Virus record (IMG/VR): IMGVR_UViG_2734482774_000012
Span: 1-41,474 of that record
Source: a virus
Lineage: Duplodnaviria > Heunggongvirae > Uroviricota > Caudoviricetes
Strand: one strand, 5' to 3'
Length of the DNA: 41,474 bases
Part shown: positions 2,934 through 18,718 of the stretch, in pieces
Layout of the letters: each line of letters opens with the position of its first letter
Position numbering within the stretch: the first letter of the stretch is position 1
Position numbers and translations under genes: made by a program
Notes under the pieces: model-generated
The model's input: only the letters and a program-made list of their open reading frames with translations
The model's database searches: none
Told to the model about the DNA's origin: nothing

Positions 2934-3278
2934 TTAGTCCTTGCGTAGCTCTCTGATTCTTCTGTAAGTCTCTGGTGCTTTGTTTCCGTGTATCTTCATT
3001 TCAGACTTCAACAGAGCAACGAGGGAATCCCATTCGTTGAGGATTCCTTTGAATGCCGGAACGCGCTTTGCAACCTTGTCGAATGAATCTCTGATTTCTG
3101 GAATCTGCTCAACAAGTGCAACGCATCGCCGAAAGTCTGCTGCGTCATGGGGAGCGTCGAAGTGATGGCCATAGATATTCTTTTTCAGTCCACATGCGAT
3201 TGAGGCAAGAGTTGCGCTACTGATGCCGACATCGCCAGTCGATTGCCATTTCAAAACCTTCATAGCCAAATCTGACAT
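2934..3278 (-). CDS. Hypothetical early-region protein (114 aa)
   Basis: ATG start with GGAG RBS; same strand as the early operon; no family recognised. Confidence 0.5.
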   Translation of the reverse strand: MSDLAMKVLKWQSTGDVGISSATLASIACGLKKNIYGHHFDAPHDAADFRRCVALVEQIPEIRDSFDKVAKRVPAFKGILNEWDSLVALLKSEMKIHGNKAPETYRRIRELRKD

Positions 3279-3385
3279 TTCTTGTCTCCATAAAACAAAA
3301 CCCGCCGTAGCGAGTTCAGATAAAAGAAATCCCCGCGAGTGCGAGGATTGTTATTCACCTTTGACGGCAAGTTGCAGGTTAGCCA

Positions 3386-3646
3386 TTACCGCACCTCCAG
3401 TCTCCATACCGCCTGACCAATCCGGCTGGCATAGGTATCTTTGGATACTGCTCCGTCTTTAGCCAGCTCCATAAGAATTTTGCGCAAATCTGCCGAACGC
3501 CATTCCTCATCAGGAAATTCCTTCTCCATTGCCAACCGCAGATTCCAGGTTGCCATCATGAATGGATATTCCCCGCCGAGAGCTTTATCTTGCAGGGCAG
3601 CCCGGGAACGCATCACCTGCAAAACCTTCTCTTTTACATCCATCAT
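3386..3646 (-). CDS. Hypothetical protein (about 86 aa)
   Basis: Longest ORF extends to 3718 but an ATGATGA start/stop overlap with the upstream gene and a GGAGG RBS at 3653-3657 favour a start at 3646. Confidence 0.45.
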   Translation of the reverse strand: MMDVKEKVLQVMRSRAALQDKALGGEYPFMMATWNLRLAMEKEFPDEEWRSADLRKILMELAKDGAVSKDTYASRIGQAVWRLEVR

Positions 3647-4185
3647 TTCGCCTCCTGCGGCGGTTCTGGTAGCGGCATCCAGTGTGACGGTTTCCACGAC
3701 GCACCAGGAATTATCCATCCATCATTAGCGTCAGGATGCCCCGGGATGTAAGTAGCCCATTTCATTCGCCAGTCACCTTTCCTGTCAAACTCCACGGCAA
3801 CAAGAACGGCTGTTTTGGTATTCGGCATTCGCTCACTACAGCTTATCCAACTATCCGGAGTTACCGGAGAGTTGCCATTTACATCGAAGTTTGGCTCTGC
3901 GTCCTGAACCAGGAGGATGTAACCATTCTTGGCTGTATCAAGTTCTAACGCCTCGGTGACGGTGCCGAAATAGCGATTACCTAAATCAGCATCACAAGTG
4001 CTTACATCAATGGAAACTTCCATGCCTTCGATTAAGTCTGGCAAGTTGTAAGTTTGGCTTACAGGTTCGGCTTCCAGCGATGCCAGTGCAATTCGTGCCA
4101 GTTCCATTTGTTCGCCACGAGTAAGCCCGTTTTCAAGCGGATCTTTAATGAACAATTCAATACGTTCTTTGGTAATAGAATTCAT
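3643..4185 (-). CDS. Phage protein with DUF551-like C-terminal domain (180 aa)
   Basis: C-terminal KPSHWMPLPEPP motif resembles the DUF551 family common in enterobacterial prophage early regions; ATG start with AGGTG RBS. Confidence 0.55.
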   Translation of the reverse strand: MNSITKERIELFIKDPLENGLTRGEQMELARIALASLEAEPVSQTYNLPDLIEGMEVSIDVSTCDADLGNRYFGTVTEALELDTAKNGYILLVQDAEPNFDVNGNSPVTPDSWISCSERMPNTKTAVLVAVEFDRKGDWRMKWATYIPGHPDANDGWIIPGASWKPSHWMPLPEPPQEAK

Positions 4186-4186
4186 G

Positions 4187-4378
4187 CTATTTCACCTTAA
4201 TCTCAACATTTCGCAGCTTTAGCTCTACTGGCAGGTCTGACTTTCCGGTTAATGCCAATGCGAGATTTTCTGGAGTAATGAGAGCAGTTATTGTTTTCCC
4301 CCTCGCCAGACGAATAATCATTCGTATCTCGCAATCGTCACATGCTCCAGGTCGAACAATTGATATTTGTCCATTCAT
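4187..4378 (-). CDS. Hypothetical small protein (63 aa)
   Basis: ATG-initiated ORF packed between neighbouring genes, same strand. Confidence 0.4.
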   Translation of the reverse strand: MNGQISIVRPGACDDCEIRMIIRLARGKTITALITPENLALALTGKSDLPVELKLRNVEIKVK

Positions 4379-4379
4379 C

Positions 4380-4688
4380 TCACTCTCCTTTGATGCGAAT
4401 GCCAGCGGCGCGGATTGCAGCGATGACCTCAGAAACTTTGTATGCCATTACCGTTTGGTAATCATCGTGAAAATCTGTTCGATGAAGCATGCTGCTACGT
4501 TCTGGGAGCAGTATTTCCCGTGCTTCCAGTTCTGCAATGCGCTTTTTGTCTGCTTCCCGTTCATCCAGTAGTGCCAGCACAACCTGAGGTGTGACTTTCA
4601 TACGAAATGCCAGCAATTTTTGAGGCGTTGCTACTGTTTCAATTGCTACTGCTGCCTCACGCAGTGCCTGGTAATTAATTTCGCTCAC
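4380..4688 (-). CDS. Hypothetical protein (102 aa)
   Basis: GTG start preceded by strong AAGGAGG RBS; GTGA overlap with the upstream stop. Confidence 0.5.
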   Translation of the reverse strand: MSEINYQALREAAVAIETVATPQKLLAFRMKVTPQVVLALLDEREADKKRIAELEAREILLPERSSMLHRTDFHDDYQTVMAYKVSEVIAAIRAAGIRIKGE

Positions 4689-5116
4689 TGGTTGCCTCCT
4701 TTGCGAAGCTGGGCAGCAAAGTCACGGATAGTGTCATCAAGGTCTGGGCACAACAGATGGTCAGCAAACATCTCTACCCCATGCGCCCGTACTTCAGCCA
4801 GGAAAGCATCGGTGGCTGGGGTTTCAGTAACATCATCTTCCCATTCGCCAAACTCCTCACGACAAAAGTCATTAAATTCCTTCTCAGATTGCTTAAGCGA
4901 GGTATTTTCTGCAGCCATCTTCGCGCATTTAGCCTCAAGGTTATCAATCGTGATTCCAGCAGAACGACACTCCCGCAACGCCGTTTCCAGTTTTGATTCA
5001 AGTTCACCGAACTTACGGACAAGATATTCAGCGTTTGTTTCGTTAACCTTTAAATCTCGGGGGATGCATTTACCTTTCAGAAAACCATCCATCTCAATTA
5101 GTGACATTTGTTTCAT
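4685..5116 (-). CDS. Hypothetical protein, possibly Ead/Ea22-like (about 143 aa)
   Basis: Longest ORF begins with GTG at 5134 lacking an RBS; ATG at 5116 overlaps the stop of the upstream small ORF (ATGA), so I place the start there. Acidic, coiled-coil-like composition. Confidence 0.5.
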
Positions 5117-5277
5117 TTTTTCCCACTCCGCCACATCGCATTCAGATATTTGTTTTGATTCACTGATGGAAAAGAATTTCTCTTAAGCAATTCCTCTCTC
5201 GATGGCATTGGCTTTACGCGTTGGCGAATAATCATTTCTGCCGGAAGAATGCCGGGGTTGTATGCAAGTCCTCTCAT
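5113..5277 (-). CDS. Hypothetical small protein (54 aa)
   Basis: Internal ATG at 5277 has a GAGGA RBS and follows the upstream stop; the longer 104-aa reading would overlap the preceding gene. Confidence 0.35.
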
Positions 5278-5287
5278 GGTAAATTCC

Positions 5288-5581
5288 TCAGTCATTACTG
5301 ATAGCGCCATAGCGTGAGCGGTAATTACGCAGGCGCGGGTCAATTTCAGGGAAGTGGGTATATGTGGCTTTGCGGAATGGTCGGATTGATGTCTGGTAAA
5401 TTCGCTCGCGTTCTTCTTTCTCTGCAAGCCATATACAATGGCGAAATTCCTTTTCCTCTTTCGTTTCCTGCGGTAGCGACATTATCCGATCGTAGTTTTT
5501 TCTGAATTTATCCAGCACCTCCGATACGGAATTGCCGGAACAGCGGCGCGGGTCATCCGCACCATACAGAGGCGCTGGCAT
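5288..5581 (-). CDS. Hypothetical protein (97 aa)
   Basis: ATG start with AGGAG RBS. Confidence 0.5.
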
Positions 5582-5597
5582 GGTTTTCTCCTGTTGA

Positions 5598-6146
5598 TTA
5601 TTTAGCTAACTTTTTCCAGATCGCTGAAACGTATTTGGCTTGGTGAATGGCATCATCAAGAGCGTTGTGGCGAGTTCCTTTGAATGGCATATCTCGCTTA
5701 GGGTCGAATCCTATTACCTTTCCAAGCTCGACGATTGTTCTTACGTCGCGGTCATTCCACCACTGCCATGGAACTGGCTGCCCTGTCAGCGAATAACTGT
5801 TTCGGAGAATAACGCAGTCAAATGATGCTCCATTCCCCCAAACCTGAACGAATTTGTGGTTAGCGTTCTTTATGATGAATTCAGATAACCATGAAAGAGC
5901 CGTTGAAAGCTCCTGAGTGTTGCTGGTTAGCGATTTTCTGGCTTCTTCACTCTGTTCCAGCCACCATAAAATCGTTGAAGCGTCAGGACGCGCCCGATAT
6001 CGCATTGATGACTCAAGCGAGATATTTACCGAGAACTCTTCTCCTGTTTCTCCGGTATTCGGGTCAAAGAATACCGCCCCAATAGAAATAACTGGCGCGT
6101 ATGGCCCGTTGCCCATTGTTTCAAGGTCAACCATCAAGTGATTCAT
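5598..6146 (-). CDS. 3'-5' exonuclease, DnaQ/DEDD-like (182 aa)
   Basis: N-terminal MVDLETMG (Exo I motif, D-x-E) and C-terminal HNALDDA (Exo III-like) are characteristic of DEDDh exonucleases; ATG with AAGGA RBS. Confidence 0.7.
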   Translation of the reverse strand: MNHLMVDLETMGNGPYAPVISIGAVFFDPNTGETGEEFSVNISLESSMRYRARPDASTILWWLEQSEEARKSLTSNTQELSTALSWLSEFIIKNANHKFVQVWGNGASFDCVILRNSYSLTGQPVPWQWWNDRDVRTIVELGKVIGFDPKRDMPFKGTRHNALDDAIHQAKYVSAIWKKLAK

Positions 6147-6154
6147 GTAAGTCC

Positions 6155-6634
6155 TTAAATTGCGTGAATAGCGTGACGAGGGAAGGGGAGAGTTACTGGT
6201 TCCTCGTCTGGGTAGATAGGTTTGTTATGTTTGTGCCACTCGACATGACATGACTTGCAGAGCCACATCACATCGGTTGGTTTGCTGTAGTCGCAGTGGT
6301 GCGCCTGTGGTTTACATTCTGATCCGCAGCACTCACATTGTGGTGGTCGGATTAGCTTACCGTCGCGCAAAAAATTACCCACAATGATGTGGGCTTTTCT
6401 TTTCCATGGGTTGCTCTGAATGAACCGCTTTTTGGCTGCGTTACACCGTTCTCTTCCGCGTTCCGATGATTGATATTCTCTCCTTGCTGATACTCGATGT
6501 GGCAATCCAGCGCGTTCTTTGTCGTATTCAGCCAGGCAAGCCCGGCAAGCGGCAGTTAATCCATCTCTGGATGCTCTTCTGATTTGAAAGTCCCTTTCTT
6601 CCTTCTGTTGATGGCATCTTGAGCAGATTTTCAT
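6155..6634 (-). CDS. Cys-rich HNH-like nuclease / zinc-finger protein (159 aa)
   Basis: N-terminal CxxC...CxxC and C-terminal HHCDY...WLCKSCH..WH arrangement resembles the HNH motif; assignment is from motif only. Confidence 0.5.
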   Translation of the reverse strand: MKICSRCHQQKEERDFQIRRASRDGLTAACRACLAEYDKERAGLPHRVSARREYQSSERGRERCNAAKKRFIQSNPWKRKAHIIVGNFLRDGKLIRPPQCECCGSECKPQAHHCDYSKPTDVMWLCKSCHVEWHKHNKPIYPDEEPVTLPFPRHAIHAI

Positions 6635-6643
6635 ATTCAGCTC

Positions 6644-7117
6644 CTAGAACGGAATATCCGAATCGTCGAAGTTCATAGGTGGTTCGCTGTGATTCCCATG
6701 CTGCTGAGATTGCTGTCTTTGTTGCTGGCCGTTATTTCGCTGAGGTGAAGACTGTTCATTGCCTCCTTGCTTGCCACCAAGCATTTGCATGGTTACACCA
6801 ACGCCTACGATAACTTCGGTAGTGAACCGATCCTGTCCGCTTTGATCCTGCCATTTTCTTGTCCGCAATTTGCCTTCAAGATAAACCTCTGAGCCTTTTC
6901 GCAGATATTCGCTGGCAATTTCTGCCAGTTTCCCGCTCATTACCACACGGTGCCACTCCGTCTGCTCCTTTTGCTCTCCAGTTTGCTTATCACGCCATTG
7001 TTCTGACGTAGCAACTGTAAGGTTTGCAAATGCCGTTCCTGATGGTGAATATCTGATTTCTGGATCATGCCCAAGGCGACCAATAATGATCACCTTATTT
7101 ACGCCTCTACTTCCCAT
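6644..7117 (-). CDS. ssb: Single-stranded DNA-binding protein
   Basis: OB-fold N-terminus ([18 protein letters not shown]...), Gly/Gln-rich linker and acidic C-terminal tail ending DDSDIPF, as in bacterial and phage SSBs. Confidence 0.85.
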
Positions 7118-7825
7118 TTATGCCGCCTGTTTTAGTTCGTTAACTCTGATGTTCATTACCTGGACGCATTTAGCCTGCGCCTCCTCGTTGCCAGCCATTA
7201 ATTGCCAGTCACGCTGATAACGCTCGATGAGTTTTTTCTTGTCAGTTTCTGTTGATGCATAATCGCTGAAGTCTTTCAGGATTTGTTCGCAGTCAACCGA
7301 TGGAGATTTCTGGTTGGTATTTTCTGGTGATGGTTTGTTATCTGATGCTGGGATTGCCCATCCCGGCAGCGATGGAGGGAGCCAGTAAAATCCTGTTCCA
7401 TCCTTCAGTTTTGCCCTGTGCCACCCATGCTTTTTATCGAGAGATGTTTGTGCGAAACCTTCCTCAAGGTTATACAGATACCGACCGATTCCCCACTGAA
7501 CGGCAGCACGCTTCATTGCACCTGAACGACCACCTTTGACGGCTTCTACCTGCGTGTTTTCAGCAGCATCCCATTTGGTTACCCATTCGGAATCAATCTT
7601 GATTGATATGCCGCATTCAACTCCGCCGTTGTTGGGAATATCGCGGTATTCATTGCGCCATCCTGCTTTGCCGCAAACATCGTCCAGGCGTTTCATGATT
7701 GCCCGGTTCGTGACATAAGCCAGCACCATAGCCCACACTTTTCCATCGCGTGTTTTACCGCTTTGCTGTATTCGCCATTCGATATCTTCAGGGCTGAATG
7801 GCTCATCGAATTTATTCAAATCCAT
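7118..7825 (-). CDS. Rad52/Rad22-type single-strand annealing protein
   Basis: Central GGRSGAMKRAAVQWGIGRYLY-type motif characteristic of the Rad52 family; sits with ssb and the exonuclease as a recombination module. Confidence 0.7.
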   Translation of the reverse strand: MDLNKFDEPFSPEDIEWRIQQSGKTRDGKVWAMVLAYVTNRAIMKRLDDVCGKAGWRNEYRDIPNNGGVECGISIKIDSEWVTKWDAAENTQVEAVKGGRSGAMKRAAVQWGIGRYLYNLEEGFAQTSLDKKHGWHRAKLKDGTGFYWLPPSLPGWAIPASDNKPSPENTNQKSPSVDCEQILKDFSDYASTETDKKKLIERYQRDWQLMAGNEEAQAKCVQVMNIRVNELKQAA

Positions 7826-7924
7826 AAATCACCTCAGAATGGACATGGCCCAAGGAAATAACGCTGATTTAATACTTCGACTCGGGACAAATTAAGGCAT
7901 ACCCGCATTCCTTCGCGGTCGCCA

Positions 7925-8083
7925 TTATGGCGATACCAGAGAGCTTTCTGCGTGTACATGCGTCTCTGTAACTTGCTCTCCTTCACTGTGGTTGCAAGTG
8001 ACATGAATATCTCCTTCGTTACCGATTAATTCTTTCATCTGACGAATGAATTCTTCGTCTGACCAGTTATCTGTAAAACTCAT
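7925..8083 (-). CDS. Hypothetical small protein (52 aa), coupled to the kil-like gene
   Basis: Manually translated (MSFTDNWSDEEFIRQMKELIGNEGD...); ATG overlaps the kil-like stop (ATGA). An alternative 56-aa ORF in another frame (7834..8004, strong AAGGAG RBS) overlaps it; only one is likely real. Confidence 0.3.
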   Translation of the reverse strand: MSFTDNWSDEEFIRQMKELIGNEGDIHVTCNHSEGEQVTETHVHAESSLVSP

Positions 8084-8232
8084 TTCCTGCGATACCACGG
8101 AAGGTTGATAGCTGATTTCATCGCTTTATTTGCTTCAAGCCACATTTTTGAATCACCAATAAATCTGGCTATTACTGCTTTGTTCTGTGCAGCACGAAGC
8201 ATCTGGTGATTAATGGCTATTTCATTGTGCAT
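8080..8232 (-). CDS. Kil-like small protein (50 aa)
   Basis: Manually translated MHNEIAINHQMLRAAQNKAVIARFIGDSKMWLEANKAMKS...; the FIGD-KM segment and the position between the CIII-like gene and the recombination genes resemble lambda Kil (recollection). Confidence 0.45.
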   Translation of the reverse strand: MHNEIAINHQMLRAAQNKAVIARFIGDSKMWLEANKAMKSAINLPWYRRK

Positions 8233-8351
8233 AACGCCTCCAGTTGTTTCTTTGCTGCTCTGATTAATTGTTTAACTCGGCGTGATAATTCAGATTCGTG
8301 CGGGTAGAAAGCGGACATGACGCCGCTACCCGCGAGCTGAAAGTGCATCAT
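8217..8351 (-). CDS. CIII-like protease-inhibitor peptide (44 aa)
   Basis: MMHFQLAGSGVMSAFYPHESELSRRVKQLIRAAKKQLEAL resembles the lambda CIII core (AG...ES-L--R-------L amphipathic helix); strong RBS (TAAGGAG, 7-nt spacer); correct position in the pL operon. Confidence 0.5.
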   Translation of the reverse strand: MMHFQLAGSGVMSAFYPHESELSRRVKQLIRAAKKQLEALCTMK

Positions 8352-8417
8352 GGGTAACTCCTTATATTTGATTGCATAACGAAAACGCCTCGAGTGAAGC
8401 GTTATTGGTATGCATAT

Positions 8418-8441
8418 AAAAAAGCCCTCACACTGGAGGGC
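8418..8441 (-). terminator. Intrinsic terminator candidate (tL1-like)
   Basis: On the minus strand GCCCTCCAGTGTGAGGGC hairpin followed by TTTTTT; lies between the small genes downstream of N and the CIII-like gene. Confidence 0.4.
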
Positions 8442-8536
8442 AAAGAAGATTTCCAATAATCAGAACAAGTCGGCTCCTGTTTAGTTACGAGCGACATTGC
8501 TCCGTGTATTCACTCGTTGGAATGAATACACAGTGC

Positions 8537-8722
8537 TTATTCGCGAGCTTTGAGCATTGCGTCTGCCATCGCATAAGCTTCTTTAGCAAGTGGTTCGTTG
8601 TCATAAAGCCTGTCTGGATTTGCACAAACTCCCTGCATGAACTTTGCTGCGAAGTAATCACGTAATGTCGCATCACTTGCCATTTCTGGGCGTTTGATAT
8701 CTGCTTCATAAAACTCGCACAT
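8537..8722 (-). CDS. Hypothetical small protein (61 aa)
   Basis: ATG at 8722 overlaps the stop of the upstream 44-aa ORF (ATGA coupling). Confidence 0.45.
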   Translation of the reverse strand: MCEFYEADIKRPEMASDATLRDYFAAKFMQGVCANPDRLYDNEPLAKEAYAMADAMLKARE

Positions 8723-8856
8723 CACTCACCTCCAAGAGCATTTGCAGCCTCTTTTGCTTTGTGAATCCATAGCAGAGCCATGTAGTACATAGCCTTTTCG
8801 TCGGCTCCTGTGATATCTTGCTCTGCCATCCATTTTGTAAATTCAACTGCGCTCAT
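8722..8856 (-). CDS. Hypothetical small protein (44 aa)
   Basis: Manually translated MSAVEFTKWMAEQDITGADEKAMYYMALLWIHKAKEAANALGGE; GAGGTG RBS. Confidence 0.4.
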   Translation of the reverse strand: MSAVEFTKWMAEQDITGADEKAMYYMALLWIHKAKEAANALGGE

Positions 8857-8895
8857 ATTCACCTCTGTTGTTTATGCCAAAAATAAAGGCCACCA

Positions 8896-9096
8896 TCAGG
8901 CAGCCTTGTTATTCTGTTTACCAAGTTCTCTGGCAATCATTGCCGTAGTTCGTATTGCCCATTTATCGACATATTTCCCATCCTCCATTACAGGAAACAT
9001 TTCTTCAGGCTTAACCATGCATTCCGATTGCAGCTTGCATCCATTGCATCGTTTGAATTGTCCACACCATTGATTCTTATCAATAGTCGTAGTCAT
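8896..9096 (-). CDS. Hypothetical Cys-containing small protein (66 aa)
   Basis: ATG-initiated ORF in the early operon downstream of N. Confidence 0.45.
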   Translation of the reverse strand: MTTTIDKNQWCGQFKRCNGCKLQSECMVKPEEMFPVMEDGKYVDKWAIRTTAMIARELGKQNNKAA

Positions 9097-9224
9097 ACGG
9101 ATAGTCCTGGTATTGTTCCATCACATCCTGAGGATGCTCTTCGAACTCTTCAAATTCTTCTTCCATATCTCACCTCAAATAAGTGGTTTGCTGCCTAATT
9201 TTATTTTCTGGCGACCAACACAAG

Positions 9225-9608
9225 TCACCTTGCTGTCAGTTGTTTTGATTTCCTGTAGCCTGCCGCGTAAAGAGCTACATTTGGAAGACATACACCAGTT
9301 TCTGGTTGCCTATGCCCAAACTCATTCGCGTACACAATGGCCGCTCTCTCCAGATTGCGTCTGTATTCTTTCTGTTGCCAGATCACGTCCTGTGCCATGA
9401 ACTTAATTGGCTTAGCGTCTTCTATGCGCTCAGGCGTTTCGTGAGTACCTTTAGCCTGAATCTGCGCTCTGCTTAGAGTAGGGCGGTGTAATACTTCTGA
9501 ACTTATTGCTTCTTCGCGGGCCAGTACGCCGTTAGCTAATGCCTTTGCCTTTAAACGCTCACGACGACGAGAACGTGAATTGCCTTTGAACTGAGTTCTG
9601 CGTGTCAT
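9225..9608 (-). CDS. N-type transcription antiterminator (P22 gene 24-like)
   Basis: Arginine-rich N-terminus (SRSRRRERLKAKA) and C-terminus LPNVALYAAGYRKSKQLTAR resemble P22 gp24 as I recall it; first gene downstream of pL/OL; strong RBS. Confidence 0.75.
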   Translation of the reverse strand: MTRRTQFKGNSRSRRRERLKAKALANGVLAREEAISSEVLHRPTLSRAQIQAKGTHETPERIEDAKPIKFMAQDVIWQQKEYRRNLERAAIVYANEFGHRQPETGVCLPNVALYAAGYRKSKQLTAR

Positions 9609-9773
9609 ATAGACCTCCTGATGAACTTTGGTGGTGTGGTAGGTGGGAGACCCATTTCGACCTGTTTCGGCCTACTTCAATTCGGCAATAGTCCCGCAGG
9701 CCTCGCCGCTTTACGTGCGACATATTCCCGTCCATGAACCCTTCACCACACCCCAAAGTTCACTTTGGTTATT

Positions 9774-9788
9774 GCGCTTTGTCAGCGC
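9774..9788 (-). promoter_or_regulatory. nutL boxB-like hairpin (P22 type)
   Basis: Minus-strand GCGCTGACAAAGCGC in the pL leader upstream of the N-like gene, matching the P22-type boxB stem-loop (recollection). Confidence 0.5.
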
Positions 9789-9858
9789 CGTAGATTCATA
9801 TTCGAATCGTTGTATATTCACCGCCCTGGTGAGTAGTGCGTCCTGCTGATGTGTTTAG

Positions 9859-9919
9859 TATCACCGCCAGTGGTATTTATGTCAACACCGCCAGAGATAA
9901 TTTATCACCGCAGATGGTT
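9859..9919. promoter_or_regulatory. Lambda-type left operators OL1, OL2, OL3 with pL
   Basis: Exact 17-mers TATCACCGCCAGTGGTA (9859..9875), CAACACCGCCAGAGATA (9883..9899), TATCACCGCAGATGGTT (9903..9919) match lambda OL1-3 as I recall them. Confidence 0.85.
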
Positions 9920-10075
9920 ATCTGTATGTTTTTTATATAGATTTATTTTTTTTGCAGGGGTGTGTGGCTTGGGAGGTGATCGAGAGATCTGAATTGCGAT
10001 GTTTAGTGAGTTGTATCTATTAATTTTCAAATAAATACAATTGGTTATGTGTTTTGGGGCGAACGTGAGGCAAAG

Positions 10076-10107
10076 AAAACCCGGCGCGGTGGCCGGGTTT
10101 ATTTATT
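10076..10107. terminator. Bidirectional intrinsic terminator at the end of the cI-side operon
   Basis: CCCGGC-GCGGTG-GCCGGG hairpin flanked by A-run and TTTATTTATT; the stop of the 216-aa gene lies in the T-tract. Confidence 0.6.
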
Positions 10108-10753
10108 GCTTAGGAGCTTGTTGTGATGACGATTGGTTAGTTGGAGCGCTCGTTAATGGTTGCTGTGTCGGTACCTGTATTATAATTGGAGCCGGGCTGG
10201 TTACTGATGGTGACTTGTCATTGCCGGAGATAATCCAACTTGAGGCTAACATCACGCCAGACAGAATCACAGTAACTAAAGTCAAGCCAACGGCCATCGC
10301 CCACTGAGTCGTTGTAAGTCCCGTTTTCAAACCGCCGATTTCACCTTTAATTTCAGCAATACCTCTCTCAATAGAAGAAAATTGCTGAGTATAATAGGTT
10401 TTAAAGTCAGCTGATTCGCGACGCATTTCCGCAGCAATAGACTCTACCTCTGATTTGTTTTGTGAAAGCTTTGCGTCAAGTTCTTCTCTGGACATTCCGC
10501 TCACGCTTACCTCCAGGGTATCACTCTTCATCGCTACATCTTCCTTACTTGGGCGCAAACCCGTTTCGTCCATGGCGTATGAAACTCTATTTGATACCTT
10601 AGCATCAATACCAATACTTTGGTACTGAGATGGATCCCCATAAGGAGAAACGGTTGTCGCTGCTAGGGTTGCACTAACTATAATACTTGGAAGAACTGAT
10701 GATGTTGTTCCTGAGGTAGGTTGAACTGAAGAAACTGGCTTCAGTCTTTCCAT
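10103..10753 (-). CDS. Unrecognised membrane-anchored protein (216 aa): S/T-rich N-terminus, coiled-coil-like centre, single TM, P/S/T/Q-rich tail
   Basis: ATG start; hydrophobic segment WAMAVGLTLVTVILSGVMLASSWII around residues 143-167; heptad-like central region; low-complexity tail; in rexB position of the cI operon. Confidence 0.6.
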   Translation of the reverse strand: MERLKPVSSVQPTSGTTSSVLPSIIVSATLAATTVSPYGDPSQYQSIGIDAKVSNRVSYAMDETGLRPSKEDVAMKSDTLEVSVSGMSREELDAKLSQNKSEVESIAAEMRRESADFKTYYTQQFSSIERGIAEIKGEIGGLKTGLTTTQWAMAVGLTLVTVILSGVMLASSWIISGNDKSPSVTSPAPIIIQVPTQQPLTSAPTNQSSSQQAPKQ

Positions 10754-11007
10754 AGCCCATTATCCCTGAGAGCTACCTGTAATGATTTTACTAATGCAAC
10801 AGCTTGATCCGGGCTCATTGAGACTGACATGTTAGGGGTCAACTCAACTTTTACTTGGAAGCTATTATTTCCTTGCTCATCAGACTGCATGTGATGCTCA
10901 AATTCATGGCGGTAAAAAGTAATGATTGTTTCAGCACGATCAGGCGTAATAAGAACTGATGTGGCGGTCATGTGCTGAGGTATGATTTTAATAGTGTTAT
11001 CTGACAT
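10741..11007 (-). CDS. Unrecognised soluble protein (88 aa) in the cI operon
   Basis: Internal ATG at 11007 has an AAAAAGGA RBS; the longest ORF (to 11148) has none. Stop overlaps the start of the 216-aa gene by 13 nt. Confidence 0.5.
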   Translation of the reverse strand: MSDNTIKIIPQHMTATSVLITPDRAETIITFYRHEFEHHMQSDEQGNNSFQVKVELTPNMSVSMSPDQAVALVKSLQVALRDNGLWKD

Positions 11008-11199
11008 AAGTATCCTTTTTGTTTCCTTAGTATTTTTTTGCATTGACATCAGAAATAGCGAATCCACAAGAGTATGAGTAAAGCTAATCAGTTTAGTGAT
11101 ACGGTGACTATTAAAGTGGTAAACCACATCAAAGCTCGCAGAGTGCATACCAGGCTGTCACACATGACAAAGTAACGAGGATGCCTGATCTCATAGCGC

Positions 11200-11355
11200 T
11201 CAAAGAGACATGCCGATAATGGCATTAACCACGCATGACGCCATAAACACGCCGCCAACGATGAAGCTGGCTTGGTTCTTCCTGGTAGCGCCAAGAGTCA
11301 ACAGAACCACTGAAAGGGCAAAAAAAGGTATCGCGATTATGCTGAACGTGTTCAT
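11200..11355 (-). CDS. Small hydrophobic protein (51 aa, two predicted TM helices)
   Basis: Manually translated MNTFSIIAIPFFALSVVLLTLGATRKNQASFIVGGVFMASCVVNAIIGMSL; GAGGT RBS; 77 nt downstream of the cI stop on the same strand. Confidence 0.45.
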   Translation of the reverse strand: MNTFSIIAIPFFALSVVLLTLGATRKNQASFIVGGVFMASCVVNAIIGMSL

Positions 11356-11432
11356 GTTGACCTCAACTTATTTCGATTCTCCATCACCCTTAATCCGCCG
11401 CCCCATGTGTTTGTTGTGATCCGTTGCTGGCC

Positions 11433-12149
<717 letters not shown>

Positions 12150-12156
12150 TTAAATC

Positions 12157-12220
12157 TATCACCGCAAGGGATAAATATCTAACACCGTGCGTGTTGACTA
12201 TTTTACCTCTAGCGGTGATA
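12157..12220. promoter_or_regulatory. Lambda-type right operators OR3, OR2, OR1 with divergent pRM/pR
   Basis: TATCACCGCAAGGGATA (12157..12173), TAACACCGTGCGTGTTG (12180..12196), TACCTCTAGCGGTGATA (12204..12220); pR -35 TTGACT and -10 GATAAT; OR1 differs at one base from the lambda sequence I remember. Confidence 0.85.
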
Positions 12221-12237
12221 ATGGTTGCATGTACTAA

Positions 12238-12447
<210 letters not shown>

Positions 12448-12452
12448 GTAAC

Positions 12453-12512
12453 ACCGCTCTTTTCACAATGGACATTCGTCCTACGTCGCTGACAAAGCGA
12501 GCCCCAAGATAT
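12453..12512 (+). promoter_or_regulatory. nutR-like site (boxA CGCTCTTTT plus boxB-like hairpin)
   Basis: CGCTCTTTT at about 12455 and TCGCTGACAAAGCGA hairpin at about 12497..12512, between cro and the cII-like gene. Confidence 0.45.
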
Positions 12513-12584
12513 CTGACCAACTAAGGCCATATGCGTTTCCACGCATACCTTTCAACTAACTATTCACTATTGGAAAATTAACAA

Positions 12585-12881
12585 ATGACACAAGCAAGTT
12601 ACAGCAAGCCAACACAGCGAGAAATTGATCGCGCAGAAACAGATTTACTCATCAACCTGTCAACGCTTACCCAGCGCGGTCTGGCAAAGATGATTGGCTG
12701 TCATGAATCGAAGATAAGCAGAACGGACTGGAGATTTATTGCTTCGGTCTTGTGTGCTTTCGGAATGGCATCAGACATCAGTCCGATTAGCAGGGCTTTT
12801 AAGTATGCATTGGATGAAATCACAAAGAAAAAATCCCCGGCTGCCACCGAGGATTTTAAGCAAATTGATATGCAATTCTGA
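12585..12881 (+). CDS. CII-like transcriptional activator (98 aa)
   Basis: Position after cro/nutR; C-terminus KKKSPAATEDFKQIDMQF parallels lambda CII NKKRPAATERSEQIQMEF; rest divergent. Confidence 0.65.
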   Translation: MTQASYSKPTQREIDRAETDLLINLSTLTQRGLAKMIGCHESKISRTDWRFIASVLCAFGMASDISPISRAFKYALDEITKKKSPAATEDFKQIDMQF

Positions 12882-12913
12882 GGGAATTACTGGATCAATC
12901 CACAGGAGTAATT

Positions 12914-13075
12914 ATGACAAAACGTCGTAAGAAATACCAGGAAAAAGAAGAGATTCGACACCCTGATTCACCTGAGGGATTAGTGGTAGCCGCAGCAAAT
13001 AACAGGGCGTTCGCAGAGCGCCTTGTTGGTGTTTACAGACTAGCCAAAGCAGGAGTGAAACATGGGCGTCGTTAA
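12914..13075 (+). CDS. Hypothetical small basic protein (53 aa)
   Basis: Manually translated MTKRRKKYQEKEEIRHPDSPEGLVVAAANNRAFAERLV...; AGGAG RBS; overlaps the start of the O-like gene by 14 nt. Confidence 0.3.
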   Translation: MTKRRKKYQEKEEIRHPDSPEGLVVAAANNRAFAERLVGVYRLAKAGVKHGRR

Positions 13076-13883
13076 GTTAGCTGATTACAGGCCTCAACTG
13101 GAGGTCGTGGAGCATCGCGTGGCAGATACCGAAGATGGTTTCATGCGCGTTGCTAACGAGATTACCGACAGTCTGCTGATGGCTGATTTAACCGTCCGGC
13201 AGTTGAAGGTGATGCTCGCTATCATGCGCAAGACATACGGATTCAATAAGCCGATGGATCGACTCACAAACACGCAGATAGCAGCCATGACAGGTATTCA
13301 TCACACTCATGTTTGCGCTGCCAAGCGCCAGCTTATTGAGCGTAAATTCCTCATTGCTGATGGCGTGAAAATCGGAGTGAACAAGGTGGTTTCTCAGTGG
13401 ATTAGCCAGGACAGCTTAACATTAGCTAAAACAGCTAATAAAACATTAGCCAAGTCGGCTAATGGGTATAAGCCAAGTCAGCTAAACACAAAAGACAATA
13501 TACAAAAGACAATAAATACAAATACCCCCTTACCCCCTAACGGGGGCGGCGATGGGCAGGTTAAACCTGAACGTCGCAAGGCAGAACGAATCGACTACGA
13601 ATCCTTCCTGAACGCCTACAACACCGAAGTCGGTGACAGACTTCCACACGCTGTTGCGGTCAACGAGAAACGAAAACGCCGCCTGAAGAAAATCATCCCG
13701 CAACTGAAAACGCCAAACGTGGACGGTTTCAGAGCGTATGTCAGGGCGTTTGTGCATCAGGCCAAGCCGTTTTACTTCGGAGACAACGACACGGGCTGGA
13801 CGGCAGATTTTGATTACCTGCTGAGGGAAGATTCGTTAACGGGAGTACGGGAAGGGAAGTTTGCAGACAGGGGGATTGCATGA
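13062..13883 (+). CDS. Replication initiator, lambda O-like N-terminal domain (273 aa)
   Basis: N-terminal [37 protein letters not shown] resembles the lambda O DNA-binding domain; iteron-like repeats inside the gene; followed by a helicase. Confidence 0.8.
13420..13540. repeat. Origin-like iterons plus A/T-rich tract inside the O-like gene
   Basis: Repeated units around TAGCCAAGTC(G/A)GCTAA and ACATTAGC(T/C)AA, followed by the A-rich stretch AAAAGACAATATACAAAAGACAATAAATACAAATAC. Confidence 0.45.
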
Positions 13884-15256
13884 GACAGGATATCGAAGCG
13901 AGCGTTATCGGTGGCCTGCTGATTGGTGGATTAACACCAACCGCCAGTGACGTTCTGGCAACGCTTGAGCCGGAAGCGTTTTCAATTCCGCTCTACCGGA
14001 AAGCCTTCGAGGTTATCCGCAAGCAGGCGCGAAACAGAAACCTAATCGACGCGCTGATGGTTGCCGAGGCGTGCGGAGAGGAGCATTTCACGTCAATCCT
14101 GATGACCAGCAAAAACTGCCCGAGTGCCGCAAACCTGAAGGGATATGCCGGAATGGTCGCGGATAACTATCACCGCCGTCTGGTGCTGGAAATCATGGAT
14201 GAAATGCGTGAACCAATTCAGAGCGGAACCATCGACGCATCGAGTCAGGCGATGGATGAACTTGTAAAGCGTCTTTCAGCCATCAGAAAGCCCCGTGACG
14301 AGGTTAAACCTGTACGGTTAGGGGAAATCATCACTGACTACACTGACACGCTTGACAGGCGTCTGAGGAACGGAGAAGAGTCAGATACCCTGAAGACCGG
14401 AATCGAAGAACTTGATGTCATCACCGGAGGGATGAACTCGGAAGACCTGGTGATTATCGCTGCTCGTCCGGGTATGGGGAAAACCGAGCTGGCGCTGAAG
14501 ATTGCCGAAGGCGTTGCAAGCCGCGTTATTCCTGGTTCTGACGTCCGGCGCGGAGTGTTGATTTTCTCGATGGAAATGAGCGCATTGCAGATCGCAGAGC
14601 GAAGCATTGCCAACGCCGGGAGGATGTCGGTTAGCGTACTGCGAAATCCTGCATCGATGGATGACGAAGGCTGGGCGCGTGTTGCTAACGGCATGAGTCA
14701 GCTTGCAGATTTGGATGTATGGGTAGTCGATGCCTCGCGGTTATCGGTCGAAGAAATACGCTCAATCGCAGAACGGCACAAACAGGAAAATCCAAACCTC
14801 TCACTCATCATGGTGGATTATCTTGGCCTGATTGAGAAGCCGAAAGCAGACCGCAACGACCTCGCAATTGCTCACATCTCCGGAAGCCTGAAGGCGATGG
14901 CGAAAGACCTGAAAACGCCTGTTATCTCCCTGAGTCAGCTTTCGCGCGATGTTGAGAAGCGACCAAACAAACGCCCGACAAACGCAGATTTGCGTGATTC
15001 AGGAAGCATTGAACAGGACGCAGACTCAATCATCATGCTCTATCGGGAAGCGGTATATGACGAGAACAGTAGCGCCGCGCCATTTGCTGAAATCATCGTG
15101 ACGAAAAACCGTTTTGGCTCACTTGGTACGGTTTATCAGCGGTTCTGCAACGGACACTTTGTTGCATGTGACCAGGATGAAGCCAGACAGATTTGCACAG
15201 CATCAAATGCACCTGCTGCACGTGGCAGACGATATGCACAAGGGGCTGACGTATGA
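13880..15256 (+). CDS. DnaB-family replicative helicase (P22 gene 12-like, 458 aa)
   Basis: Walker [16 protein letters not shown], DnaB-type N-terminal domain and C-terminal RecA-like core motifs; ATGA overlap with the O-like gene. Confidence 0.9.
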
Positions 15257-15281
15257 CCATCTACATCACTGAGCTTGTAAC

Positions 15282-15313
15282 AGGCCTGCTGGTAATCGCA
15301 GGCCTTTTTATTT
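15282..15313 (+). terminator. Intrinsic terminator (lambda tR2-like)
   Basis: AGGCCTGC-TGGTAATC-GCAGGCCT hairpin followed by TTTTTATTT, just after the helicase gene. Confidence 0.6.
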
Positions 15314-15328
15314 GGGGGAGAGGGAAGT

Positions 15329-15655
15329 GTGGCTGACTGGCAAATTCCAATCATCATTCTTTCCGGAGCTTCGCTGGTTGCTGGCTTTATCCTGCTGAAA
15401 AAGCATAAAGACCGTGATCAAAAAGTCGAAGTTCTCTATGGGTATCCAGCGAACAGCACAACATGGCTGACCATTTACCACTACCGAAAATCAGGCCGCT
15501 GGGTATTCGAATGGGATGATCTGTTCGCTGAAAAGCGACCAAAGTCATGGGGAGACATCAGCGAATGCATGATGTTTGAAGAAAGAAAATCTGGCGCAAC
15601 CCGAGAAGAGTTTAACGAAGCGTGGGCGCGATTAAGTGAGAGAGGGTATTTGTGA
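15329..15655 (+). CDS. Hypothetical protein with N-terminal TM helix (108 aa)
   Basis: GTG start with G-rich RBS; hydrophobic IPIIILSGASLVAGFILL near the N-terminus. Confidence 0.45.
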   Translation: MADWQIPIIILSGASLVAGFILLKKHKDRDQKVEVLYGYPANSTTWLTIYHYRKSGRWVFEWDDLFAEKRPKSWGDISECMMFEERKSGATREEFNEAWARLSERGYL

Positions 15656-15852
15656 GCAAGTACGAAAAATTAGATCAAAACATTCTTTCAATGCTGAGTG
15701 AAAGACCAACACCTGTTTTTGATATCTGGCTTAAATGGCGGAGCAATGGAATGTATATCGAAACCATCGATCGCCGTATGCAATACCTGAGAAAGAAAGG
15801 GCTTGTTGCAAATGTGCGTGGGAAGGGTTGGGTGAAAATTAACCTGTCATAA
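15652..15852 (+). CDS. Hypothetical small protein (66 aa)
   Basis: GTG start overlapping the upstream stop (GTGA). Confidence 0.4.
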   Translation: MSKYEKLDQNILSMLSERPTPVFDIWLKWRSNGMYIETIDRRMQYLRKKGLVANVRGKGWVKINLS

Positions 15853-15863
15853 CGGGGATTGAT

Positions 15864-16130
15864 ATGGACGAATCAAGAAAGCAGTTTGAAGAATGGTTTG
15901 AAAATTACACCGGATGTGATCCTAAAAATAAAATATACGCCAATATGGTTGAGATGTATTGGCAAGCGTGGCAGGCATCGCGAGCAGCTATCGAGATTGA
16001 GTGTCCTGGAAAAAGAGAGCGTGAGGCATTTTCTACCGATTTCGAGGATGGGGTCACATTTGGTTATAACGACGCAATTAGTGAATGCGAAGGACGGATT
16101 CGCGCTGCTGGAGTCAAAGTGAAGGAGTAA
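15864..16130 (+). CDS. Hypothetical protein (88 aa)
   Basis: ATG-initiated ORF immediately upstream of ninB. Confidence 0.5.
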   Translation: MDESRKQFEEWFENYTGCDPKNKIYANMVEMYWQAWQASRAAIEIECPGKREREAFSTDFEDGVTFGYNDAISECEGRIRAAGVKVKE

Positions 16131-16132
16131 CG

Positions 16133-16543
16133 ATGAAGCAAACAATCTTCCTCCGAAGTAAGCAACAACAGCAAGCCGCAATAAATGCCATCCTCTCAAC
16201 TCCTCTCGATAAAGACAAGCCAGTCACCATCCGCATTACTGACTACAAGCGCAACCTTGACCAGAACGCAAAATTTCACGCGATGGTCGCAGATATCGCT
16301 AGGCAAGTTCAGTGGCGCGATAAATGGTTAAAACCAGAACAATGGAAGGTTTTGTTGATCAGCGGTCATGCAGTGGCAACAAAACAGGAAGCTGATGTTT
16401 TGCCCGGCCTTGAAGGCGAATACGTCAACATTCGCGAAAGCAGCGCGCAGATGAGCGTGAAGCGTATGGCAAGTCTGATTGAGTACACGACAGCATGGGC
16501 TATTGGTCAGGGTGTCAGATTTACCGACAGGAGGTACGAATGA
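16133..16543 (+). CDS. ninB: NinB recombination protein
   Basis: Start at internal ATG with AAGGAG RBS; similar to lambda NinB (…LDQN.K…W…W, recollection). Confidence 0.8.
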
Positions 16544-16716
16544 GACGACAGCGACGAAGTTTCACCGACATAATCTGCGAAAACTGCAAATACCTTCCAA
16601 CGAAACGCTCCAGAAATAAACGCAAGCCAATCCCAAAAGAATCTGACGTAAAAACCTTCAATTACACGGCTCACCTGTGGGATATCCGGTGGCTTAGAGA
16701 ACGTGCGAGGAAATGA
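16540..16716 (+). CDS. ninE: NinE
   Basis: [52 protein letters not shown] closely matches lambda NinE as I recall it; ATGA overlap with ninB. Confidence 0.75.
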
Positions 16717-17093
16717 CAATGGATTATTCACAGTTAAGTGATTTTGAAATTAACTTAAAAGTCGCGCATATCGTGTTAGGAAAAAACAATTACGACTGGG
16801 ATCCAGAAAAGAAAGAAGTTTACTTGGCTGGAATTGATGGTGGTGAGTTTTTGCCTTGCGGATATTTCGACCCATGTAATATGGCTGCTGACGCATATCC
16901 GATCATCACTGAAAACAAAATTAGCACCATGTGGATGACAGCGGAAAAAGAATGGTGCGCATGGTCAGGAGGTGATTTAGAGGAAGGTTGTTGGGAATGG
17001 GAAAATATTCCTGACTACTGCTTCTGCGGTGAGTCGCCTCTCCGCGCCGCCATGATTGTCTTTCTCATGATGCAGGACGCCAATAATGCTTAG
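16713..17093 (+). CDS. Hypothetical nin-region protein (126 aa), possibly DUF2591-like
   Basis: ORF between ninE and ninF; family assignment is a weak recollection. Confidence 0.5.
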
Positions 17094-17262
17094 CCCATCC
17101 CAATCCCTTCAATACCAGAAAGAAAGCGTCGAGCGAGCTTTAACGTGCGCTAACTGCGGTCAGAAGCTGCATGTGCTGGAAGTTCACGTGTGTGAGCACT
17201 GTTGCGCAGAACTGATGAGCGATCCGAATAGCTCAATGTACGAGGAAGAATACGATGGCTAA
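17086..17262 (+). CDS. ninF: NinF (58 aa)
   Basis: Manually translated [49 protein letters not shown]... matches lambda NinF as I recall it. Confidence 0.75.
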
Positions 17263-17866
17263 ACCAGCGCGAAGACGATGTAAAAACGAAGAATGTCGGG
17301 AATGGTTTCATCCTGCATTCGCTAATCAGTGGTGGTGCTCTCCAGAGTGTGGAACCAAGATAGCACTCGAACGACGAAGCAAAGAACGCGAAAAAGCGGA
17401 AAAAGCAGCAGAGAAGAAACGACGACGAGAGGAGCAGAAACAGAAAGATAAACTTAAGATTCGAAAACTCGCCTTAAAGCCCCGCAGTTACTGGATTAAA
17501 CAAGCCCAACAAGCCGTAAACGCCTTCATCAGAGAAAGAGACCGCGACTTACCATGTATCTCGTGCGGAGCGCTCACGTCTGCTCAGTGGGATGCCGGGC
17601 ATTACCGGACAACTGCTGCGGCGCCTCAACTCCGATTTGATGAACGCAATATTCACAAGCAATGCGTGGTGTGCAACCAGCACAAAAGCGGAAATCTCGT
17701 TCCGTATCGCGTCGAACTGATTAGCCGCATCGGGCAGGAAGCAGTAGACGAAATCGAATCAAACCATAACCGCCATCGCTGGACTATCGAAGAGTGCAAG
17801 GCGATCAAGGCAGAGTACCAACGGAAACTCAAAGACCTGCGAAATAGCAGAAGTGAGGCCGCATGA
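17255..17866 (+). CDS. ninG: NinG / Rap recombination protein
   Basis: [50 protein letters not shown]... nearly identical to lambda NinG as I recall it. Confidence 0.9.
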
Positions 17867-18069
17867 CGTTCTCAGTAAAAACCATTCCAGACATGCTCGT
17901 TGAAGCATACGGAAACCAGACAGAAGTAGCACGCAGACTGAAATGTAGTCGCGGCACGGTCAGAAAATACGTTGATGATAAAGACGGGAAAATGCACGCC
18001 ATCGTCAACGACGTTCTTATGGTTCATCGCGGATGGAGTGAAAGAGATGCGCTATTACGAAAGAATTGA
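17863..18069 (+). CDS. ninH: NinH
   Basis: [39 protein letters not shown]... matches lambda NinH. Confidence 0.8.
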
Positions 18070-18718
18070 TGGCAGCAAATACCGAAATATTTGGGTAGTT
18101 GGCGATCTGCACGGATGCTACACGAACCTGATGAAAAAACTGGAGACGATAGGATTCGACACCAAAAAAGACCTGCTTATTTCGGTTGGCGATTTGGTCG
18201 ATCGCGGTACAGAGAACGTCGAATGTCTGGAATTAATCACATTCCCCTGGTTCCGAGCTGTACGTGGAAACCATGAGCAAATGATGATTGATGGCTTATC
18301 AGAGCGTGGAAACGTCAATCACTGGCTGCTTAATGGCGGTGGCTGGTTCTTTAATCTCGATTACGACAAAGAAATTCTGGCTAAAGCTCTTGCCCATAAA
18401 GCAGAAGAACTTCCGTTAATCATCGAACTGGTGAGCAAAGATAAAAAATATGTTATCTGCCACGCCGATTATCCCTTTGACGAATACGAGTTTGGAAAGC
18501 CAGTTGATCATCAGCAGGTAATCTGGAACCGCGAACGAATCAGCAACTCACAAGACGGGATCGTAAAAGAAATCAAAGGAGCGGACACGTTCATCTTTGG
18601 TCATACGCCAGCAGTGAAACCACTCAAGTTTGCCAACCAGATGTATATCGATACCGGCGCAGTGTTCTGCGGAAACCTCACATTGATCCAGGTACAGGGA
18701 GAAGGCGCGTGGGCATAA
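18047..18718 (+). CDS. Ser/Thr protein phosphatase (lambda NinI-type, about 223 aa)
   Basis: Metallophosphatase motifs GDLHG, GDLVDRG, GNHE; start placed at the internal ATG (MRYYERIDG) with GGAG RBS. Confidence 0.85.

Follow-up and report, generated by a model that had tools for sequence, protein, structure and literature searches.

Gene content of the cI-OL interval

The DNA analysed is a stretch of 41,474 nucleotides (nt) from a virus of the class Caudoviricetes (IMG/VR record IMGVR_UViG_2734482774_000012, positions 1 to 41,474; below, the window), and the subject of this report is a block of three minus-strand genes in its immunity region. The genes, orf51, gp49 and gp48, follow the repressor gene cI in this order and are considered here as a possible lysogen-expressed module against other phages. 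Alignment to lambda DNA identified the block (10100..11436) as an exact replacement of lambda rexB-rexA (lambda 35827..37230), the lambda match ending at window position 10099 and restarting at 11437. The limits of the block are the stop codon of the lambda-like cI on one side and a terminator hairpin adjoining the operator region OL on the other.

An earlier note on this DNA, made from the letters alone, had placed three unrecognised open reading frames (ORFs) in the rexAB position of a lambda-type immunity region. All three were found on the minus strand, where the note had them (Table 1) and with the anatomy it described. The repressor protein is 99.2% identical to lambda CI, and the flanking DNA matches lambda at 89% identity on the PL/OL side and 98% on the cI/OR side. 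The genes are not rexA and rexB: in BLASTP comparisons, the expectation values (E) of gp48, gp49 and orf51 were above 2 against RexA and above 3 against RexB. The interval is, as the note had also held, a documented mosaic hotspot for abortive-infection genes (rexAB, bstA) (PMC8585504, PMC7067206).

The hairpin that closes the block has a G+C-rich stem of 9 base pairs (bp) followed by UUUUCUUU (hairpin sequence AAACCCGGCC-ACCGCG-GGCCGGGUUU, then UCUUUG). Its folding energy was -19.1 kcal/mol (z = -3.6), and 0 of 200 shuffled sequences were equally stable, which bears out the terminal hairpin next to OL in the earlier description. Judged from its location at the end of the lambda match, which coincides with the rexB stop codon, the terminator is conserved with lambda.

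No sigma-70-like promoter was found on the coding strand anywhere within the block, and a plausible ribosome-binding site, read from the sequence, precedes each of the three ORFs. The 77-nt spacer between cI and orf51 contains no terminator-like site, and in the spacer between orf51 and gp49 neither a minus-strand promoter-like site nor a stable structure (z = +1.4) was found. The promoter PRM is expected in the OR region through identity with lambda and HK97, and the block is probably made in lysogens. A weak terminator-like hairpin (11210..11225, minus strand; 5-bp stem, then GUCUCUUUGA) covers the last codons and the stop codon of orf51 and could attenuate read-through into gp49-gp48. An Rfam scan of 9000..13200 returned a single chance match.

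Table 1. Features of the block and its surroundings (window positions; aa, amino acids; pLDDT, predicted local distance difference test)
Feature	Position	Strand	Remarks
PL promoter (TTGACA-17-GATACT), within the OL region	9857..9885	-	lambda promoter; left border of the hotspot
Intrinsic-terminator-like hairpin	10077..10100	-	just 3' of the gp48 stop codon (begins 3 nt beyond it)
gp48, 216 aa	10103..10753	-	identical to HK97 Gp48; phrog_5820 member
gp48 residues 178-216, Pro/Ser/Thr/Gln-rich tail, motif APIIIQVP	10106..10222	-	
gp48 residues 148-177, single transmembrane helix	10223..10312	-	
gp48 residues 88-147, conserved charged helix (SREELDAKLxxNKxEVxxIAAEMRRExAxF...)	10313..10492	-	
gp48 residues 1-87, Ser/Thr-rich arm	10493..10753	-	pLDDT below 50; unalignable between subfamilies
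gp49, 88 aa	10741..11007	-	matches HK97 gene 49; phrog_26809 member
Spacer orf51 to gp49, 192 nt	11008..11199	-	sequence scan and folding
orf51, 51 aa, two membrane helices and basic loop (TRKNQ)	11200..11355	-	HK97 AF069529 28009..28161
Spacer cI stop codon to orf51, 77 nt	11356..11432	-	GAGG ribosome-binding site
cI repressor	11433..12146	-	context; presumed source of cassette transcription (PRM/PRE)
OR operators	12157..12220	.	context; HK97 OR annotation mapped by offset
PR	12194..12222	+	lambda promoter

Relation to HK97 and carriers of the block

A region of 1.6 kb containing the block is 99.8% identical in DNA to phage HK97 (AF069529 / NC_002167), where cI and PL likewise flank the block. 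HK97 genes 48 and 49, annotated there without function, correspond to the two larger ORFs, and neither protein differs from its HK97 counterpart. The claim of an undescribed module therefore stood in part: nothing was found recorded on function, and the genes themselves were already catalogued, as HK97 48 and 49 and as members of phrog_5820 and phrog_26809. The match between the window and HK97 at 99% is limited to 9164..15284. In the remainder (1..9163 and 15285..41474), HK97 matches occurred only as short patches of 92-99% identity. Because the matches outside the immunity and replication block are patchy only, the window is, on this alignment, a different mosaic lambdoid prophage that shares the HK97 cI-to-P region.

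Phages HK225 and PDP110P1 also carry the full block, as do 52 of 5426 complete Escherichia coli genomes. In HK225, it lies behind a different repressor, and the shared sequence starts at the terminator hairpin. A 25-nt remnant of the 3' end of a lambda-type cI (...WPEETFG-stop; window 11433..11457) is retained in HK225 (locus L002, approximately 3866..3890) as non-coding spacer right after the stop codon of HK225's own repressor, and by its position this remnant marks the recombination junction of block transfer. Since the HK225 copy is bounded by the hairpin and by the cI remnant, the block, as read from these borders, moves as a unit with the terminator included.

The gp49 and gp48 proteins

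The gp48 protein (100% identity to HK97 Gp48; phrog_5820 match E = 9.6e-69) has one membrane segment, around residues 148-177 in the Kyte-Doolittle profile. In the AlphaFold model, a long helix (residues 89-138) is followed by a second helix (143-177), the remaining chain being of low confidence; pLDDT reached 80-87 over residues 90-120. The family alignment assigned four of the five invariant residues (E91, A94, K100, E102) to the charged helix, and the fifth, Q150, belongs to the motif GLKTxLxTxQW that precedes the membrane helix. The number of Gly-containing heptads after the charged helix varies, from 2 in HK97 to approximately 8 in HK542, Kosakonia and locus L033. The N-terminal region of the family comprises approximately 40-100 residues that are not alignable across subfamilies, and in gp48 the corresponding arm is predicted as probably disordered. 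The C-terminal tail (PIIIQVP) is missing in the Sodalis and Klebsiella-phage homologues and kept by many others, so the tail is not essential to the family. Because gp48 has no signal peptide and a single membrane helix near its C-terminus, it is predicted to be a C-terminally anchored inner-membrane protein, with the N-terminal 147 residues cytoplasmic and the tail periplasmic.

The "156-aa truncated gp48" of some E. coli records was dismissed as a gene-caller artefact, the gene being intact in locus L025. A match of a 269-aa gp48 relative to LeoC (E = 0.0013) was likewise set aside as chance coiled-coil similarity.

The gp49 gene product is a small acidic protein without a hydrophobic segment; it matches phrog_26809 over residues 1-88 (E = 4.1e-62), and its DNA is 99.8% identical to HK97 gene 49. 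Its structure model (pLDDT 83) consists of four strands, among them a long hairpin (27-42 / 48-64), with a helix at the C-terminus (66-82). No Foldseek match to this model was obtained at E <= 0.001 in PDB or BFVD, and all template modelling scores were 0.4 or lower. The overlap of gp49 and gp48 by 13 nt (10741..10753), already pointed out in the earlier note, is retained in Klebsiella homologues with only 45-66% (gp49) and about 33-35% (gp48) identity. Compared with a Klebsiella homologue, gp49 had 0.23 nonsynonymous differences per nonsynonymous site (pN) and 0.90 synonymous differences per synonymous site (pS). A 135-aa extended gp49 ORF (10741..11148), present in some annotations, was rejected, as the Klebsiella homologues begin at the 88-aa position.

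Distribution of the gp49-gp48 pair

Genes of the gp48 family were found at about 17 distinct prophage loci across Enterobacterales, and 14 of the 14 family proteins scanned matched phrog_5820. The carriers include Klebsiella michiganensis, Klebsiella phage ST15-VIM1phi2.1, Kosakonia, three Yersinia species, Citrobacter pasteurii, Phytobacter, Sodalis, a metagenome contig, a Providencia prophage on an IncC plasmid, Citrobacter koseri/Enterobacter-type prophages (L033-L035), and the lambda-immunity wild phages HK542 and HK244. The reading frames are thus conserved in related prophages, as the synteny survey suggested by the earlier note was meant to check. The family is small, with 11 clusters among 5.8 billion proteins, and so is that of gp49, for which 1.84 billion proteins yielded 12 representatives; roughly half of these are marginal matches in much longer proteins. 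The alignments are shallow.

At all but one of the Enterobacterales loci, the gp48-family gene lies directly behind a repressor gene and is co-directional with it, preceded by a small partner gene. In K. michiganensis, for example, the repressor is followed by an 88-aa gp49 homologue (66% identity) and a 213-aa protein, with the 13-nt overlap. In HK542 (L029, 1486..2537), and also in HK244, the rexAB slot holds a 144-aa partner and a 206-aa gp48-family protein, which in HK542 is only 28% identical to HK97 gp48. The linked repressors are of more than one family (S24/LexA-like and short HTH_3), and the pair is, by this comparison, linked to the role of the neighbouring gene and not to one gene lineage. 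The sole exception is a Xenorhabdus locus (L021, 3652..4755), where the pair and an arc gene are convergent and a KilA-N/P22 antirepressor gene adjoins the latter (an immI-like region). A RelB/ParE pair was observed nearby in the same locus.

A distant relative was found in an alphaproteobacterium: on plasmid p1_Teo12 of Shinella zoogloeoides (L036, 3324..3953), an unannotated 209-aa ORF encodes the gp48 core (TREEVDAKLERTEAKVE...) together with a membrane helix (tblastn E = 4e-5). An ORF resembling, by eye, an Arc-type ribbon-helix-helix regulator lies 328 nt upstream of it.

The partner genes are of at least three types. Type A partners, which are gp49-like (84-101 aa), form the HK97/Klebsiella, C. 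pasteurii/Y. enterocolitica and Yersinia/Kosakonia groups, linked by profile-profile comparison over the same colinear stretch (E from 5e-5 to 3e-4, probability 39-67%). Type B partners (143-146 aa) are those of HK542 and Phytobacter, which are 63% identical to each other, and that of Sodalis, which was included by its size and a common C-terminal motif and not by a BLAST match. Type C partners (95-100 aa) occur in L022, Providencia and L033. Similarity between gp48 N-terminal arms was detected only between loci with the same partner type. The ST15-VIM1phi2.1 protein is a chimera, in which an HK97-type arm (VSAxLAA...P.YG..PQYQ) and partner are coupled with a core closest to that of Sodalis (type B). 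This recombinant speaks for arm and partner being a single functional unit, and from it we infer that the partner binds the gp48 arm.

orf51 as a separate unit

The Kyte-Doolittle profile of orf51 peaks at residues 1-25 and 28-51. The gene is unannotated in both HK97 records and in most RefSeq E. coli genomes carrying it. Its homologues form 36 clusters (67-98% identity, mostly 51 aa); against the Atlantibacter homologue, the ratio of nonsynonymous to synonymous substitution rates (dN/dS) was approximately 0.07, and DNA similarity was confined to the ORF. By these measures, orf51 is a real gene under strong purifying selection. The opposite-strand ORFs annotated over this region in HK225, HK225_045 and HK225_046 (L002, 3507..3608 and 3652..3852, plus strand), look like misannotations, because HK225_046 overlaps the conserved orf51.

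The relatives of orf51 in Atlantibacter, Lelliottia and Klebsiella are chromosomal and stand-alone, with pmrD, yceI-type genes or dinI as neighbours. Within E. coli, orf51 was found only in the 52 cassette-bearing genomes, and among sequenced phages only in HK97, HK225 and PDP110P1. Copies at least 90% identical to it occur in Rac-like prophages, 12-15 nt behind the HTH_3 repressors, and the ribosome-binding junction of orf51, TTGAGGKCAAC ATG (K = G or T), recurs behind these other repressors. Four cargos follow orf51 copies, namely a ClpP-like 331-aa protein, a HipA_2 and DUF3037 pair, a type C partner with a 269-aa gp48-family protein, and, in E. coli, gp49-gp48. The ClpP-like cargo (L023, 4296..5291) has an N-terminal region of the ClpP/SDH serine-protease type; its Pfam match (E = 3.7e-7) is just below threshold, and it gave no PADLOC match. 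The HipA_2 and DUF3037 proteins (L032, 4827..6409), encoded directly behind the repressor and orf51 in a Rac-like prophage, matched PDC-M66A/B, a candidate system of PADLOC (E = 8e-14 and 1e-19).

Conversely, 13 gp48-family loci are without orf51. Because each occurs without the other, orf51 and gp49-gp48 are, by their distribution, separate and independently occurring units, and the single three-gene cassette of the earlier note had to be given up. On the same loci, the hotspot has two nested positions, a repressor-proximal one for a small membrane protein and, behind it, a variable cargo slot.

In Yersinia intermedia (L003, 3746..4691), two paralogues of approximately 133 aa, each with an N-terminal membrane helix, were observed between the repressor and a partner/gp48-like pair. 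They occupy the repressor-proximal position of orf51, yet are unrelated to it and gave no family matches. A DUF2767 gene (69-81 aa) was observed just downstream of the cargo slot, on the opposite strand and convergent with it, in L004-L006, L022, L023, L032 and L035; in Rac-like prophages it seems to belong to the backbone and to mark the far border of the slot.

Searches for known relatives

For gp48, gp49 and orf51, no match above threshold was obtained in Pfam or NCBIfam, and PDB sequence searches with single proteins and profiles returned chance coiled-coil matches only. In PHROGs, gp48 and gp49 fall only in families of unknown function (phrog_5820, phrog_26809). No holin or XhlA match (Pfam, PHROG) was found among 14 gp48-family members. 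The earlier note's statement that the proteins were not recognisable accordingly held, and homology to characterised non-defence families, which it had named as grounds for abandoning the idea, was not seen above threshold.

In the searched literature, three things are apparently unreported: orf51 as a gene; the make-up of the cassette from two independent units; and the conserved repressor-linked module of a gp49-like partner and a phrog_5820 protein, with exchangeable partner and arm, across Enterobacterales including HK542 and HK244.

Comparison with known systems

RexB has four membrane helices, and RexAB excludes T4 rII mutants and other phages through loss of membrane potential. Lambda rexAB and the block fill one and the same slot, which the cI stop codon and the OL-side terminator delimit, and they share the strand and the flanks. 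The layout is also alike, with one soluble cytoplasmic and one inner-membrane protein, presumably co-transcribed with cI in both cases. The proteins differ: RexA has 279 aa and gp49 88, and RexB has 144 aa, while in gp48 a long cytoplasmic region is joined to one C-terminal anchor. In addition, rexB has a described internal promoter, and none comparable was found within the block.

Two further prophage systems are comparable by position or history. BstA of phage BTP1 is encoded behind a repressor, appears to share the repressor promoter, and localises to phage DNA replication sites (PMC8585504). Both BstA and PDC-M66 are repressor-linked like gp49-gp48, PDC-M66-like genes standing behind an orf51 copy in L032, but the proteins are unrelated to gp49 and gp48; BstA, moreover, is a single large protein that is not described as a membrane protein in PMC8585504. 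HK97 gp15 is a superinfection-exclusion protein domesticated from the chromosomal YebO family (PMC3594210). Like gp15, orf51 encodes a small inner-membrane prophage protein, with relatives that are mostly chromosomal, non-prophage genes of Enterobacteriaceae. Unlike gp15, it has two membrane helices and lies behind the repressor instead of in the tail operon; BLASTP gave no alignment of the two at E <= 100, and orf51 had no YebO match in Pfam.

The organisation of gp49-gp48 resembles that of type II toxin-antitoxin pairs, in which the gene for a small acidic protein comes first and overlaps, by a few nucleotides, a larger gene behind it. In those pairs the upstream product binds the downstream product, as gp49 would bind gp48. 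No toxin or antitoxin family (Pfam, NCBIfam) was matched by the pair, and no DNA-binding domain was found in gp49. In the CCDC90-like family PF07798 (DUF1640), a coiled coil is followed by a C-terminal membrane anchor as in gp48, and its bacterial members are without known function.

Proposed function and alternatives

The proposal is that two independent accessory units ride on the repressor transcript of a lambda-immunity prophage, transcribed, by analogy with lambda, from PRM in lysogens and from PRE during establishment. The gp49-gp48 unit would be a translationally coupled two-protein membrane module, in which a single C-terminal helix holds gp48 in the inner membrane and presents the charged helix and the variable arm on the cytoplasmic side, where gp49 may dock on the arm and control or inform gp48. 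In one version, gp48 would damage or block the membrane once an infecting phage titrates, removes or alters gp49, an abortive-infection logic of the toxin-antitoxin kind, analogous to RexA/RexB. In another, the gp49-gp48 complex would block genome entry at the inner membrane. The partner-controlled membrane effector is somewhat favoured over the entry block, because the invariant residues are predicted to be cytoplasmic and the periplasmic tail is dispensable. The other unit, orf51, may have been acquired from a family of chromosomal genes before taking the first position after the repressor, a history that would parallel that of HK97 gp15.

That gp49-gp48, and with it the block, is a lysogen-expressed module for phage exclusion or abortive infection is rated the most likely explanation, since the slot carries RexAB or BstA elsewhere, the genes form a coupled pair of a small and a membrane protein, and the partner and arm are fast-evolving and exchangeable; doubt nevertheless still slightly outweighs confidence in it. 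A broader version, held more tentatively and regarded as possible rather than probable, is that a gp49-like partner and a phrog_5820 anchor represent a hitherto unrecognised family of membrane defence systems, two-component and repressor-linked, that lambdoid prophages of enterobacteria carry and in which partner and arm would set the phages sensed, helix and anchor would execute, and orf51 would be a second domesticated exclusion factor.

Several results weigh against a defence function. The case for it consists only of position, architecture and the nature of the alternative slot cargo, and a position behind the repressor would also fit a lysogenic conversion that has nothing to do with phages. 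In PADLOC-DB v2.0 (2023), gp48, gp49 and orf51 had no match at E <= 1, and none was obtained for the HK542 homologue and its partner or for the partner types of Phytobacter, Sodalis, Xenorhabdus and L033. No paper naming these proteins, and no phenotype or transcript data, were found in the literature accessible to search. The gp48 model is poor (pLDDT 51), and no enzymatic or pore-forming domain was recognisable in the protein. A polar stripe on its membrane helix, which might be a sign of a pore, was not significant, being matched by 6% of shuffled sequences, and a Gly-heptad stalk of variable length, as it stands between the conserved helix and the membrane, would serve a scaffold no less well than a pore. 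The only Pfam signal to recur in the family was PF07798, with weak matches in 11 of 14 gp48-family members (best E = 8.6e-6), and it is uninformative about function. The co-variation of partner and arm, finally, partly reflects shared ancestry.

With the PF07798 matches and the gp48 tail anchor and cytoplasmic coiled coil in view, the pair could instead serve lysogenic conversion, as a membrane-anchored scaffold that alters host physiology (e.g. the envelope or stationary-phase stress) to the direct benefit of the lysogen, with orf51 as a generic small membrane regulator. The tail-anchored proteins ElaB and YqjD offer a possible likeness for such a scaffold, but no DUF883 (ElaB/YqjD) match was found. 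A weak match to the sll1863 stress-response family (E = 0.003, below the curated threshold) fits this alternative, as do the ordinary chromosomal orf51 relatives beside pmrD, dinI or yceI-type neighbours and the lysogen-expressed virulence genes lom and bor of lambda (PMC7067206). The Pfam and NCBIfam matches are, however, all below curated thresholds (window gp48 against PF07798: 12.6 bits, E = 0.12; gathering threshold 33.5 bits) and are limited to the coiled coil and anchor, a low-information similarity in the C-terminal part of the PF07798 profile. Apart from the Shinella plasmid relative, the pair was found only in prophage contexts and never as a core chromosomal gene, and its fast-diverging, shuffled partner and arm look more like an arms race than housekeeping. 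Conversion is considered rather unlikely.

Superinfection exclusion by an entry block, in which gp48 would obstruct the channel or host factor used by incoming siphophage DNA, orf51 would do so separately, and the infected cells would survive, as with HK97 gp15, P22 SieA and T4 Imm, is judged unlikely. P22 sieA is located in the arc/antirepressor region, and the Xenorhabdus copy lies beside such a region. HK97 already uses the small, chromosomally derived inner-membrane protein gp15 (PMC3594210), with the same history as that proposed for orf51, and many gp48 homologues keep the periplasmic PIIIQVP tail. Yet Sodalis and the Klebsiella phage have homologues without this tail, and the helix that bears the invariant residues is the cytoplasmic one. 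Known entry blockers, moreover, do not typically come with a cytoplasmic partner of their own, and orf51 is unrelated to gp15. A role in the phage's own life cycle, as a membrane-tethered regulator made from PRE/PRM that would act on lysis-lysogeny, induction or lysis timing (e.g. via FtsH/HflKC or a holin) and not on other phages or host fitness, would agree with the presumed co-transcription with cI, by analogy with lambda also from PRE at establishment, and with the strict linkage to repressor genes of several families. It is very unlikely: essentially the same cI/OR/OL switch carries unrelated cargo or rexAB in lambda, HK97, HK542 and ev099, so the switch does not need the gp49-gp48 cargo, and the pair is absent from most lambdoid phages, with the full block in so few of the complete E. 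coli genomes.

Significance

HK97 is a long-standing model phage with easy genetics, and the genes in its rexAB slot were never assigned a function, orf51 even lacking annotation. The gp49-gp48 pair is a good, testable candidate in a tractable model phage, and one that is not surprising at a known hotspot. The map of this hotspot is sharpened by the two nested positions, the cargo slot also holding a PADLOC candidate system. Should the pair prove to exclude phages, it would represent a compact defence acting at the membrane, whose recognition part can be swapped, and it would be directly comparable with RexAB, as cI, OR, OL and the terminator are the same. If it had no phage phenotype, the pair would still be a conserved lysogen-linked membrane module worth explaining.

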